A DNA stretch of 4,953 nt, from IMG/VR virus record IMGVR_UViG_2654587711_000004, one strand, 5' to 3'. Under the pieces are notes generated by a model. The model searched no databases. It was not told the origin of the DNA and saw only the letters and a program-made list of their open reading frames with translations. The position numbers and the translations under genes were made by a program. Shown here piece after piece: positions 1-4,953 of the stretch. Positions within the stretch are counted from its first letter, which is position 1; every line of letters starts with the position of its first letter. This DNA is from a virus. Taxonomy: Duplodnaviria; Heunggongvirae; Uroviricota; Caudoviricetes.

Positions 1-131
1 CCAGCCAGGGCGATATCAAAGGCGCATGTGACCAGCTACGTCGCTGGACATATGCTGGCGGTAAGCAATGGAAAGGGCTGATGACCCGTCGTGAGATTGA
101 GCGTGAAGTCTGTTTGTGGGGGCAGCAATGA
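1..131 (+). CDS. R: Phage endolysin, lambda R-type lytic transglycosylase; C-terminal fragment only (gene starts upstream of the window)
   Basis: Open frame from position 3 to TGA at 129-131 translates ...[42 protein letters not shown], which I recognise as the C-terminus of lambda R. Its stop overlaps the Rz start (ATGA at 128-131), the lambda R/Rz arrangement. Confidence 0.8.
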
Positions 132-592
132 GCAGAGTCACCGCGATTATCTCCGCTCTGGTTATCTGCATCATCGTCTGCCTGTCATGGGCTGTTAATC
201 ATTACCGTGATAACGCCATTACCTACAAAGAGCAGCGCGACAAAAACGCAAGAGAACTGAAGCTGGCGAACGCAACCATTACTGACATGCAGCAGAGACA
301 GCGTGATGTTAATGCACTCGATGCTAAATACACGAAGGAGTTAGCTGATGCGAAAGCTGAAAATGAAACTCTGCGCGCTGATGTTGCCGCTGGTCGTCGT
401 CGGTTGCACATCAAAGCAGTCTGTCAGTCAGTGCGTGAAGCCACCACCGCCTCCGGCGTGGATAATGCAACCAGCCCCCGACTGGCAGACACCGCTGAAC
501 GGGATTATTTCACCCTCAGAGAGCGGCTGATGACGATGCAGATGCAACTGGAAGGGGCACAGGAGTATATCCGCACTCAGTGCATTAAGTAG
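128..592 (+). CDS. Rz: Rz i-spanin (inner-membrane spanin subunit, lambda Rz-like)
   Basis: ATG at 128; translation [34 protein letters not shown]... has an N-terminal TM helix followed by a charged coiled-coil-like periplasmic domain, and is near-identical from memory to lambda Rz over about 153 aa. The ORF track starts at GTG 116, but ATG 128 matches the lambda N-terminus. Confidence 0.9.
348..530 (+). CDS. Rz1: Rz1 o-spanin (outer-membrane lipoprotein spanin subunit), wholly embedded in the +1 frame of Rz
   Basis: 60-aa [63 protein letters not shown] with a signal peptide, lipobox (VVVGC, Cys20) and proline-rich mature part; AGGAG at 336-340 lies 7 nt upstream of ATG 348. Matches lambda Rz1 in length and sequence from memory. 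Confidence 0.85.
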
Positions 593-634
593 CCTTTTTA
601 TCGTGGTAAACATTTCGCAGGGTATGAGGTATTT

Positions 635-985
635 ATGCCATCACTAATCCCACGTGCCTGCCGTAAGCGTGGATGTGCAGGTACAACCACAGACAGTTCG
701 GGTTACTGCGATAAACATCGCGGTGAAGGCTGGGTGCAGCACCAGCGCGGACTGAGCCGCCACCAGCGTGGCTATGGCTCAAAATGGACGGTGATTCGTG
801 CCCGTATTCTGAAGCGCGATAAAGGTCTGTGTCAGTTGTGTCTGCGTGTCGGTGTGGTGAGCGAGGCGAAAACCGTCGACCACATCATCCCGAAAGCGCA
901 TGGCGGAACAGACGCAGACAGCAACCTGCAGAGTCTGTGCTGGCCCTGCCATAAAGCGAAAACAGCGCGCGAACGAATCCGGTGA
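635..985 (+). CDS. HNH homing-type endonuclease, packaging-associated (HK97 gp74-like)
   Basis: 116-aa ORF with paired-cysteine zinc-finger motifs (C..C near the N-terminus, CQLC, CWPCH) and an HNH core (DHIIPKAHGG ... N ... CWPCH); GAGGT 4 nt upstream of ATG 635. Sits immediately upstream of terS/terL, the usual position for packaging HNH proteins. Confidence 0.88.
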   Translation: MPSLIPRACRKRGCAGTTTDSSGYCDKHRGEGWVQHQRGLSRHQRGYGSKWTVIRARILKRDKGLCQLCLRVGVVSEAKTVDHIIPKAHGGTDADSNLQSLCWPCHKAKTARERIR

Positions 986-1003
986 TAATTATTCTCACTT
1001 GTA

Positions 1004-1067
1004 GGGAGGGGCGGGGCAAATCCCTGTGACCTGACGTCTTCCGGACTGCCCGCCCCATCGTTTTTTT
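1004..1067. promoter_or_regulatory. GC-rich inverted repeat followed by a T7 run in the HNH-terS intergenic gap; candidate terminator and/or cos-region element
   Basis: Arms GGGGCGGGGCA (1008-1018) and TGCCCGCCCC (1047-1056) can pair (about 10 bp, one bulge) around a roughly 28-nt loop containing the palindromes GACGTC and TCCGGA; ATCG then TTTTTTT (1061-1067) follows. In HK97-like phages the cos site lies between the HNH gene and terS. Confidence 0.4.
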
Positions 1068-1106
1068 ATACCCGCGAAAAATGAAATTTAACCAGGAGTG
1101 CCGCAT

Positions 1107-1601
1107 ATGGCTGGAACGGCGGGGCGTTCCGGGCGTCGCCCCAAGCCAACGGCGCGCAAGGCGCTGGCCGGAAACCCCGGCAAGCGAGCCCTGAACAAAG
1201 ATGAACCTGTTTTTACGCCCATCAAAGGTGTTGAGCCACCAGAGTGGTTCGCTGAAGAAGATCTCCCTCTCGCCACGATCATGTGGCAACTGACAACCAA
1301 AGAACTCTGCGGTCAGGGCCTGCTGTGCGTGACTGACCTGGCGGTACTTGAGCGGTGGTGCGTGGCCTATGAGTTCTGGCGACGTGCCGTGAAAAATATT
1401 GCCATACAGGGCAACACCATCACCGGTGCAATGGGCGGCAGGGTCAAAAATCCGGAGCTGACCGCCAAAAAAGAACAGGAGTCCGAGATGAGCAGCACGG
1501 GGGCAATGCTCGGACTCGACCCCAGCAGCCGCCAGCGTCTGATTGGCCTGGCGGGGCAGAAGAAAGCCACTAACCCGTTTCTGAAAATTATCGAATCATG
1601 A
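1107..1601 (+). CDS. terS: Terminase small subunit (P27/HK97-type TerS)
   Basis: ORF ending at TGA 1599-1601; the preferred start is ATG 1107, with AGGAG at 1094-1098 (8-nt spacer), rather than the GTG 1098 of the ORF track. Basic N-terminus ([13 protein letters not shown]) typical of DNA-binding TerS; stop overlaps the terL start (ATGA). Confidence 0.85.
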
Positions 1602-3331
1602 GCCGGAAATCTTACCCCAACGTAAATGCTGCAAATCAGTATGCCCGGGATGTCGTGCGCGGAAAGATTGTTGCCTGCCAGTTTGTGATTCAGGCCTGCC
1701 AGCGCCATCTTGATGACCTGATGGCGGAAAAAAGTAAGTCGTTTCGTTACCGCTTCGACAAGGACCTGGCTGAACGGGCCGCGAAATTTATTCAGCTGTT
1801 GCCGCACACCAAGGGGGAGTGGGCATTCAAACGGATGCCCATCACGCTGGAGCCGTGGCAGCTATTTGTGATCTGCTGTGCGTTTGGCTGGGTCAATAAA
1901 GGCACCCGGTTGCGCCGCTTCCGGGAGGTGTACACCGAAATCCCCCGTAAGAACGGCAAATCAGCAATCTCTGCCGGTGTTGCCCTGTATTGTTTTGCCT
2001 GTGATAACGAGTTTGGCGCGGAAGTGTATTCCGGTGCCACGACAGAGAAACAGGCGTGGGAAGTCTTTCGCCCGGCGCGACTGATGTGTAAACGCACACC
2101 CATGCTGACGGAAGCGTTCGGGATTGAGGTTAACGCCTCAAACATGAACCGTCCGGAGGATGGCGCGCGGTTTGAACCGCTGATCGGCAACCCAGGTGAT
2201 GGTTCATCACCCCACTGTGCCGTGGTTGATGAATATCACGAGCATGCCACCGATGCGCTTTATACCACAATGCTTACCGGGATGGGGGCGCGACGTCAGC
2301 CACTGATGTGGGCCATCACCACCGCCGGGTACAACATTGAGGGGCCGTGCTACGACAAGCGGCGGGAAGTCATCGAGATGCTCAACGGCTCGGTGCCTAA
2401 CGATGAACTGTTCGGGATCATCTATACCGTTGATGAAGGTGACGACTGGACCGGCCCGCAGGTGCTGGAAAAAGCCAATCCAAATATTGGCGTGTCGGTT
2501 TATCGCGAATTTTTGTTAAGTCAGCAGCAGCGTGCGAAAAATAACGCCCGTCTGGCAAACGTCTTTAAAACAAAACACCTCAATATCTGGGTGTCGGCGC
2601 GTTCGGCGTATTTCAACTTGGTGAGCTGGCAGAGCTGCGAGGATAAATCACTGACCCTTGAGCAGTTCGAGGGGCAGCCGTGCATTCTGGCCTTTGACCT
2701 GGCGCGTAAGCTGGATATGAACAGCATGGCGCGACTTTATACCCGCGAGATTGACGGTAAAACGCATTACTACAGTGTGGCCCCGCGTTTCTGGGTACCG
2801 TATGACACGGTGTACAGCGTCGAGAAAAATGAAGATCGACGGACAGCCGAACGCTTTCAGAAATGGGTGGAAATGGGCGTTCTGACCGTTACCGATGGTG
2901 CGGAGGTGGATTATCGCTACATCCTCGAGGAGGCCAAAGCGGCGAACAAAATCAGCCCGGTCAGTGAGTCACCCATCGACCCCTTCGGGGCGACCGGGTT
3001 GTCACATGACCTTGCTGATGAAGACCTGAATCCCGTCACTATCGTCCAGAACTTCACCAATATGTCCGATCCGATGAAAGAGCTGGAAGCAGCGATTGAA
3101 TCGGGACGTTTTCATCATGACGGCAATCCCATCATGACCTGGTGTATCGGCAACGTGGTCGGCAAAAACATGCCGGGTAACGATGATGTGGTGAAACCCG
3201 TCAAAGAGCAGGCGGAAAACAAAATCGATGGTGCAGTTGCGCTGATTATGGCGGTTGGCAGAGCCATGCTGTACGAGAAAGAAGACACGCTGTCTGACCA
3301 CATTGAGTCCTACGGGATCCGCTCGCTTTAA
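1598..3331 (+). CDS. terL: Terminase large subunit (ATPase + nuclease)
   Basis: 577-aa ORF. Walker A-like PRKNGKS and Walker B-like CAVVDEYHE lie in the N-terminal half, with acidic nuclease-type motifs (ILAFDLARK...) in the C-terminal half. Start ATG 1598 is coupled to the terS stop. Confidence 0.95.
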
Positions 3332-3342
3332 CTGAGGTAATT

Positions 3343-3525
3343 ATGATCATGCTGATTCTCGCGCCTCTGGTGGGCGTGCTGGGTGCGCTTTTGCTGGCGT
3401 ATGGTGCCTGGCTGATTTATCCCCCGGCGGGTTTTGTTGTTGCCGGGGCGCTGTGCCTGTTCTGGTCGTGGCTGGTGGCGCGATATCTCGACCGTACACG
3501 GCAGTCTGTCGGCGGAGGTAAATAG
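3343..3525 (+). CDS. Small hypothetical membrane protein (60 aa, two predicted TM helices)
   Basis: ATG 3343 with GAGGT 7 nt upstream. Translation [60 protein letters not shown] has two hydrophobic stretches and a basic tail, with E. coli-like codon usage (CTG/GCG/GTG rich). It fills the terL-portal gap; no family recognised. Confidence 0.5.
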
Positions 3526-4681
3526 TGTTCTTTTCGGGATTATTTCAACGAAAAAGCGATGTGCCGGTGACCACGCCAGCAGAACTGCTGATGCTATCGG
3601 GCTGTCATACGACACCTATACCGGAAAGCGGATCAGTAGCCAGCGGGCCATGCGCCTGACGGCGGTCTATTCTTGCGTCAGGGTGCTGGCAGAGTCTGTT
3701 GGTATGCTGCCCTGCAGTCTCTACAAAATCAGCGGTACCCTGAAAACACGGGCGGTGGATGAACGACTGCATAAGTTGGTTTCGGCAAAACCTAATGGCT
3801 ACATGACACCGCAGGAATTCTGGGAGCTGGTTATTGTCTGCCTGTGTCTACGGGGGAATTTTTACGCCTACAAGGTAAAGGCACTGGGAGAAGTGGTGGA
3901 GCTTCTTCCGATAGATCCGGGCTGTGTGGAACCGAAGCTGAACAGCCAGTGGCAGCCGGTTTATCAGGTGACGTTTCCGGATGGTTCCGTGGATGTGTTG
4001 ACCCAGAATGAAATCTGGCATGTGCGCCCCCTGACGCTGGATGGACTTGTCGGGCTGAATCCCATTGCGTATGCGCGTGAGGCCATTTCACTGGCAGCGG
4101 CAACCGAGGAGCACGGTGCCAGGTTGTTTAGTAATGGTGCGGTGACATCCGGTGTGTTGCGTACGGAACAAAAGCTCACGCCGGATGCTTACGAGCGTCT
4201 GAAGAAAGATTTTGAGGAGTGTCACACGGGGCTTGGCAATGCTCACCGCCCGATGATTCTGGAAATGGGGCTGGACTGGAAGTCGATGGCGCTGAACGCC
4301 GAGGACAGTCAGTTCCTGGAAACCCGCAAGTTTCAGCTGGAAGAAATCTGTCGTCTGTTCCGGGTGCCGTTGCACATGGTGCAGAACACCGATCGCGCCA
4401 CCTTCAACAATATCGAAGAGCTGGGGCTGGGATTTATCAACTATTCACTGGTGCCGTATCTGACCCGCATCGAACAGCGGATCAACACCGGACTGGTACG
4501 AAAAAGTAAGCAGGGCGTTTATTACGCCAAATTTAACGCCGGGGCGTTACTGCGCGGGGATATGAAGTCCCGTTTTGAAGCCTACGCCACCGGGATCAAC
4601 TGGGGAATTTACTCTTCCAATGACTGCCGCGACCTGGAAGATATGAATCCGCGTCCCGGTGGTGTAATGCCGATCAGTTAA
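3525..4681 (+). CDS. Phage portal protein, HK97 family; apparently disrupted (N-terminal codons in a different frame from the body; 3' end abuts an IS4 end)
   Basis: Body frame (open 3434..4681) contains portal-like sequence (...AMRLTAVYSCVRVLAESVGMLPCSLYK...). It has no ATG/GTG start between the upstream gene and ATG 3650, and its only upstream starts (TTG 3434/3437/3440) lie inside the small ORF without an RBS. The other frame has GGAGG (3514-3518) then GTG 3525 encoding (M)FFSGLFQRKSDVPVTTPAEL..., a typical portal N-terminus, which hits TGA at 3657. The last codons (..GG VMPIS*) appear to be read from IS sequence. Confidence 0.7.
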
Positions 4682-4713
4682 GGATCAGTTGACCGATCCA
4701 GTGGCTGTGTAAG

Positions 4714-4748
4714 AATCCGGAAACGCTCACTTGTTTCCGGATTTTTTT
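4714..4748 (+). terminator. Hairpin plus T7 run immediately upstream of the transposase start codon (intrinsic-terminator-like; probably insulates the transposase from read-through)
   Basis: ATCCGGAAAC (4714-4723) and GTTTCCGGAT (4733-4742) form a perfect 10-bp stem with a 9-nt loop, followed by a 7-T run through 4748; the transposase ATG is at 4749 with no evident Shine-Dalgarno. Confidence 0.5.
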
Positions 4749-4953
4749 ATGCACATTGGACAGGCTCTTGATCTGGTATCCCGTTACGATTCTCTGCGTA
4801 ACCCACTGACTTCTCTGGGGGATTACCTCGACCCCGAACTCATCTCTCGTTGCCTTGCCGAATCAGGTACTGTAACGCTACGCAAGCGCCGTCTTCCCCT
4901 CGAAATGATGGTCTGGTGTATTGTTGGCATGGCGCTTGAGCGTAAAGAACCTC
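4749..4953 (+). CDS. insG: IS4 transposase, N-terminal fragment (ORF runs off the window end)
   Basis: ATG 4749; the 68 codons visible give MHIGQALDLVSRYDSLRNPLTSLGDYLDPELISRCLAESGTVTLRKRRLPLEMMVWCIVGMALERKEP with no stop, recognised from memory as IS4 transposase (InsG). Confidence 0.8.
   Translation, partial: MHIGQALDLVSRYDSLRNPLTSLGDYLDPELISRCLAESGTVTLRKRRLPLEMMVWCIVGMALERKEP

Follow-up and report, generated by a model that had tools for sequence, protein, structure and literature searches.

The portal gene carried by the 4,953-nucleotide stretch of DNA analysed here, which we refer to as the window, is spread over two reading frames, and this raises the question of whether the gene is mutated, misread by sequencing, decoded by a programmed shift or simply begun further downstream than its homology would suggest. 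An earlier note, made from the letters alone, had favoured a missing base in a decaying prophage and had offered both a pseudogene and a sequencing error as possible accounts of it. We compared the locus with its intact relatives, with other assemblies of the same organism and with known cases of recoding and of portal gene decay.

Origin and gene content of the window

Against Shigella sonnei Ss046 and further assemblies of this species, the window is 99.98% identical. Of the ten S. sonnei loci fetched first, nine, Ss046 (CP000038.1) among them, matched it at 99.94–100%, and the tenth, L006, at 98.8%, with its extra differences found only in the Rz gene. The exact TerL protein was listed in 4,305 blocks of the index, which corresponds to very many assemblies. 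When the portal region was compared with complete Escherichia coli genomes, the best matches reached only 93.6–95.8%. Near-full identity to S. sonnei, set against these lower values for E. coli, shows that the window derives from the S. sonnei chromosome. Its genes, Rz, HNH, TerS, TerL, YmfR and portal (Table 1), mark it as late-region DNA of an HK97-type, phiP27-like prophage. The top E. coli matches are annotated, in order, as terminase large subunit, protein YmfR and phage portal protein. Immediately ahead of the portal, E. coli A36, ATCC 11775, K-12 e14 and phage phiP27 all have this gene, labelled either 'protein YmfR' or 'putative integral membrane protein'.

Table 1. Features of the window and of the portal product read from it.
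Feature	Position	Strand	Basis or comment
Rz-type spanin	116–592	+	Pfam Phage_lysis
HNH endonuclease	635–985	+	Pfam HNH
P27-family small terminase (TerS)	1098/1107–1601	+	Pfam Terminase_4
Large terminase (TerL)	1598–3331	+	Pfam TerL ATPase and nuclease domains
ymfR-like gene, 60 aa, hydrophobic small membrane protein	3343–3525	+	ORF list
Portal ORF, frame 2	3434–4681	+	Pfam Phage_portal PF04860, E = 1.3e-106
Shine-Dalgarno GGAGG	3514–3518	+	6 nt before portal start; sequence
Portal codons 1–21	3525–3587	+	Frame 3; tblastn residues 1–21, 19/21 identical
1-nt deletion site	3586–3587	+	One G of ancestral GG; CTGGC to CTGC; frame 3 to 2
Portal codons 22–380	3587–4663	+	Frame 2; whole Pfam Phage_portal domain inside
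Internal ATG	3650–3652	+	Met43 of intact portal (tblastn)
Premature TGA	3657–3659	+	Stops translation from GTG 3525 after 44 codons
IS4-family element, left end	4665–4953	+	Transposase ATG 4749; Nterm_IS4 E = 1.4e-16
IS4-family transposase, start	4749–4952	+	Pfam Nterm_IS4, E = 1.4e-16
Junction peptide across the frame switch			TTPAELADAIGLSYDTYTGK
Junction-spanning peptide that a frame-restored product would contain			TTPAELADAIGL

Several smaller differences and features were observed in the region upstream of the portal gene. Bases 5–4953 of the window are virtually identical to the S. sonnei loci, and the first four read CCAG versus TAAA in all nine loci that reach this point, so that three positions differ; the endolysin gene upstream may contain a mosaic boundary here, or the mismatch may come from the way the window was excised. 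Locus L006 (CP044191.1) differs from the window across positions 53–559 by approximately 60 substitutions and a 3-nt insertion, all in the Rz spanin gene; the patch appears to have been recombined in from a different lambdoid prophage. Within Rz, in another frame, lies a 60-aa ORF (348–530, + strand) whose product has a signal like that of a lipoprotein (LVVVGC) and a tail rich in proline; it resembles an embedded Rz1 o-spanin gene, which would form a true overlapping gene pair with Rz. The HNH–TerS intergenic region (approximately 1005–1060) aligns with the phiP27 region that carries an annotated 10-nt cos, placing the cos equivalent at approximately 1047–1056 (window TGCCCGCCCC, phiP27 CGCCCGCCCC), flanked by G-rich and C-rich blocks (GGGGCGGGGCAAATCCC ... 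GCCCGCCCC). From this alignment, the packaging signal seems to survive in the prophage remnant. Locus L007 (CP021144.1) is missing one C of a CCCCC run at window position 3421, within the ymfR-like gene, and its gene calls lack the 60-aa product; the assembly may have miscounted this homopolymer, or the loss may be one more genuine frameshift.

A single-base deletion in the portal gene

In the prophages of E. coli A36, ATCC 11775 and C311, and in phage phiP27, the portal is encoded by a single 413-codon ORF that begins at a GTG overlapping the YmfR stop codon, equivalent to position 3525 of the window. The A36 portal and L38 of phiP27 share 99.5% identity, and the head module is therefore phiP27-like and HK97-type; downstream of the portal in these relatives, A36 and phiP27 included, lie genes for a prohead protease and the major capsid protein. 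In the window, GTG 3525 likewise shares its first G with the TAG (3523–3525) that ends the ymfR-like gene, and the GGAGG that precedes it is invariant across all seven aligned sequences. The frame opened by this GTG, which the earlier note had described as a portal-like N-terminus running to the TGA at 3657, is 44 codons long and includes the FFSGLFQRK segment, and we found that its first 21 codons match residues 1–21 of the homologues. GTG 3525 is thus the authentic portal start, because the intact homologues are annotated from the equivalent GTG and because of this tblastn match.

When the intact A36 portal was aligned to the window by tblastn, as the earlier note had proposed for an intact homologue, the alignment did switch frame: residues 1–21 were matched in frame +3, and true identity resumed in frame +2 from residue 22 (A-D-A-I-G, 3587) through residue 380. 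The Phage_portal profile was matched at positions 2–321 of its 321 by the frame-2 ORF. A DNA alignment with the four intact homologues (A36, ATCC 11775, C311 and phiP27) gave approximately 97% column identity and only one gap, where the earlier note had predicted it, and because of this the two-frame portal reflects homology rather than chance. At this gap, the homologues have GA(G)CTGGC(N)GA as opposed to GAACT-GCTGA in the window; therefore, one G of the GG doublet has been lost at 3587. The earlier guess of a missing base near 3586–3592, where CTG CTG ATG stands in place of CTG GCT GAT G and the protein would continue ...PAEL-ADAIGLSYDTYTGK, was exact.

With one G inserted at 3587, the portal runs unbroken for 380 codons as far as the junction with an insertion sequence, reading ...PAELADAIGLSYDTYTGK... 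This repaired ORF differs from the homologues by 10–35 amino acids. Compared with A36, 7.3% of its nucleotides differ and only 10 residues, a pattern which shows that purifying selection acted on the portal gene until recently.

Sequencing error, downstream starts and recoding as alternatives

An exact 41-mer across the deletion was present in 13/13 S. sonnei loci taken from separate records, comprising complete genomes including Ss046, two Logan assemblies, each made from a separate sequencing run, and drafts with contigs that each recur in 7 to 20 or more samples. All the S. sonnei assemblies examined carry the deletion and, in the comparison with related strains that the earlier note had called for, none of the E. 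coli homologues examined does. For the latter, 60 matches were drawn from across the ranked list of 1,402 matching E. coli records; of these, 58 span the site, and every one was one base longer than the window query, and the 25 best-listed E. coli matches likewise carry the extra base. No match to the deletion 41-mer was found in 5,426 complete E. coli genomes or among the GTDB species representatives, nulls that are weak alone because the 41-mer also holds S. sonnei-specific SNPs, which makes the length comparison the stronger test. The exact 343-aa product called from ATG 3650 was found in only 51 blocks, a poor census of the deletion, as this product carries a strain-specific SNP at 4028 and many draft contigs end within approximately 20 nt of the insertion sequence junction. 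Literature searches on this S. sonnei locus and on phage P27 found nothing specific.

The SNP at 4028 is C in the window versus A in most S. sonnei loci, and it gives Thr169Pro in the dead portal; position 169 is Thr in all four intact homologues. The C allele was otherwise found only in L009, a contig from 20 or more samples, and is a non-synonymous change in the pseudogene, specific to a strain or sublineage.

One-base indels are the most frequent type of assembly error, and the two frames could on that account be an artefact of a genome that truly reads CTGGC, with the portal N-terminus in frame. However, the identical deletion 41-mer recurs in 13 of 13 separately recorded S. sonnei loci, so it is no sequencing artefact, and the site is a GG doublet rather than a long homopolymer. 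We rejected sequencing error on the first of these grounds, and regard it as vanishingly improbable; of the two options that the earlier note had left standing, this one fell, and the pseudogene option held, with a single G lost relative to the intact homologues and a truncation by an insertion sequence. A different reading takes ATG 3650 as the true start of a short, working portal-domain protein and the ORF with FFSGLFQRK as an unrelated upstream peptide. It draws on gene callers, which report a 343-aa product from ATG 3650 in several S. sonnei assemblies, and on the Pfam match, which starts just after this codon (residue 77 of the 415-aa ORF, approximately 3662). Against it, ATG 3650 aligns to the internal Met43 of the intact homologues, all of which begin at the ymfR-overlapping GTG and carry FFSGLFQRK, contrary to what the earlier note had said would speak against its reading, namely homologues that start at the equivalent of ATG 3650 and lack this segment. 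Distant HK97-family portals, from Vibrio, Mycobacterium and Burkholderia phages, also align from residue 1–2, and the N-terminal segment therefore belongs to the protein. There is no Shine-Dalgarno sequence in the stretch upstream of ATG 3650 (GGATCAGTAGCCAGCGGGCC), and the product would be without 33 C-terminal residues and its partner head genes. The earlier note was also right that the body frame has no plausible start before ATG 3650: the only frame-2 start codons further upstream are three TTGs (3434, 3437 and 3440), which sit within ymfR with no Shine-Dalgarno sequence or other ribosome-binding site, although the automatic call in Ss046 gives a 414-aa protein from TTG 3437. Starts at ATG 3650 and at TTG 3434 or 3437 were thus rejected, the first as a working start being very unlikely, and the 343-aa and 414-aa gene calls are annotation artefacts of the frameshifted portal.

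It could also be argued that a full-length portal is still made, by programmed −1 frameshifting or by transcriptional slippage at the A5 run (3551–3555). Frame 2 is open from 3434, so that a −1 shift anywhere in 3525–3656 would give a fusion. Programmed −1 frameshifting is used in phage morphogenesis genes such as those for the lambda G/GT tail assembly chaperones; the window resembles lambda G/GT only superficially, in having two overlapping frames in a late gene; unlike lambda, it has no slippery heptamer, stimulatory structure or conserved two-frame layout, and the gene concerned is a portal. We know of no portal gene in which programmed frameshifting is established. Between 3525 and 3657 there is no X_XXY_YYZ motif in the N-terminal frame and no XXXYYYZ motif in any frame, and the only runs are T4 and A5. 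At the junction defined by homology, the P-site CUG (tRNA-Leu) would have to re-pair on ACU. No stimulatory RNA structure was detected in the 93 nt downstream (3588–3680), which fold like shuffled sequence (−29.2 kcal/mol versus a mean of −28.8 for the shuffles, z = −0.12). Efficient transcriptional slippage needs a longer run than A5, and a shift at this run would swap out 11 conserved residues, which bears out the doubt that the earlier note had expressed about this run. The three E. coli prophages, phiP27 and K-12 BeeE each keep one frame through the site, so these homologues do not conserve the two-frame layout, and a recoded product would still miss its C-terminus and find no capsid for assembly. 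Since heptamer, structure and conserved two-frame layout are all absent, we rejected programmed frameshifting and slippage at the A run; that either yields a full-length portal is exceedingly improbable.

Truncation by an insertion sequence and decay of the head module

Homology to the intact portals stops at 4663/4664 (GGTG, then TAATGCC), after codon 380. The last codons of the portal ORF, VMPIS, and its stop at 4679–4681 are insertion sequence, and the 33 C-terminal portal codons have been replaced. The element belongs to the IS4 family: an IS4 N-terminal domain and a DDE transposase abut the break in homology, and in the complete S. sonnei loci a 442-aa Nterm_IS4 plus DDE_Tnp_1 transposase follows the portal. 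Between the frame switch at 3587, the TGA at 3657 and the loss of these 33 codons, no full-length 413-codon ORF remains. A hairpin resembling a terminator (CCGGAAACGCTCACTTGTTTCCGG) with a T run occupies 4718–4748 at the left end of the element, just before the transposase ATG, and may shield the transposase against read-through transcription.

No protease, capsid or tail genes were found downstream in any S. sonnei locus fetched, only insertion sequences and then host genes. The head-module synteny is thus kept upstream, in TerS, TerL and YmfR, and is missing downstream, where the prohead protease and major capsid genes would stand. The decaying prophage proposed in the earlier note is confirmed, as the IS4-family element cuts the 3' end of the portal and the protease and capsid genes are gone. 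Since none of the protease, capsid and tail genes are left, the prophage is unable to build heads, regardless of the lesion at 3587. Beyond the IS4 element, loci L002–L004, L007 and L008 carry another insertion sequence and then bamE/recN, and loci L005 and L006 carry raiA-pheL-pheA-tyrA; these two right-hand contexts suggest an IS4-mediated rearrangement between strains.

The closest intact system is that of phiP27 (Stx2e-converting, AJ298298.1; portal L38, CAC83556.1), together with that of A36 (WP_240745495.1). phiP27 shares with the window the order HNH, cos, P27-family TerS, TerL, YmfR/L37 and portal, and a GGAGG-N6-GTG portal start that overlaps the upstream stop. Over codons 1–380 it differs from the repaired window gene by 7.5% of nucleotides and 11 residues. 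Whereas the portals of phiP27 and E. coli are intact and accompanied by protease and capsid genes, the window copy has lost a G and carries an insertion sequence at codon 380. In E. coli K-12, the cryptic prophage e14 carries a decayed portal of the same family, beeE (b1151), next to ymfR; it starts from the equivalent GTG, its N-terminal sequence is the same (...PAELADAIGLSYDTYTGK), and it is an established example of portal decay within a defective prophage. BeeE keeps its N-terminal frame and is truncated after approximately 157 codons, where it adjoins the jayE pseudogene; the S. sonnei copy, in contrast, has a frameshift at codon 21/22 and the truncation at codon 380. The e14 and S. sonnei copies are approximately 90% identical at the DNA level, and their lesions are independent and in different prophage lineages.

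A single indel therefore separates the window gene from its single-frame homologues, and the lesion is reproducible in the S. sonnei loci. We are confident that the portal is an ordinary frameshifted, IS-truncated and non-functional pseudogene in a decayed phiP27-like prophage of S. sonnei, fixed in this lineage, and that no recoding is involved. On this account, the ancestral portal gene was one 413-codon ORF from GTG 3525, with its translation coupled to that of the ymfR-like gene before it. The loss of a G from the GG at 3587 presumably came from an ordinary replication error that no selection acted to remove. Ribosomes starting at GTG 3525 would now translate 21 authentic codons and 23 out-of-frame ones before reaching the TGA. 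The IS4-family element inserted after codon 380 is another lesion, removing the 33 C-terminal codons, and in present-day genomes the head and tail module is gone beyond it. The locus should accordingly yield no functional portal protein, although residual fragments could arise from ATG 3650 or by rare spontaneous frameshifting.

Such a fragment, made from ATG 3650 or by rare frame restoration at 3587, might instead be kept as a dominant-negative decoy that poisons the portal rings of superinfecting phiP27- or HK97-like phages. We consider this extremely unlikely; conservation among the closely related S. sonnei assemblies examined is uninformative on selection. If true, it would amount to prophage-encoded superinfection exclusion by co-assembly with incoming portal rings. 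The deletion could be used as a marker of the S. sonnei lineage, and the relevance of the finding is mainly one of annotation hygiene, in that the 343-aa and 414-aa portal-like ORFs are one pseudogene.
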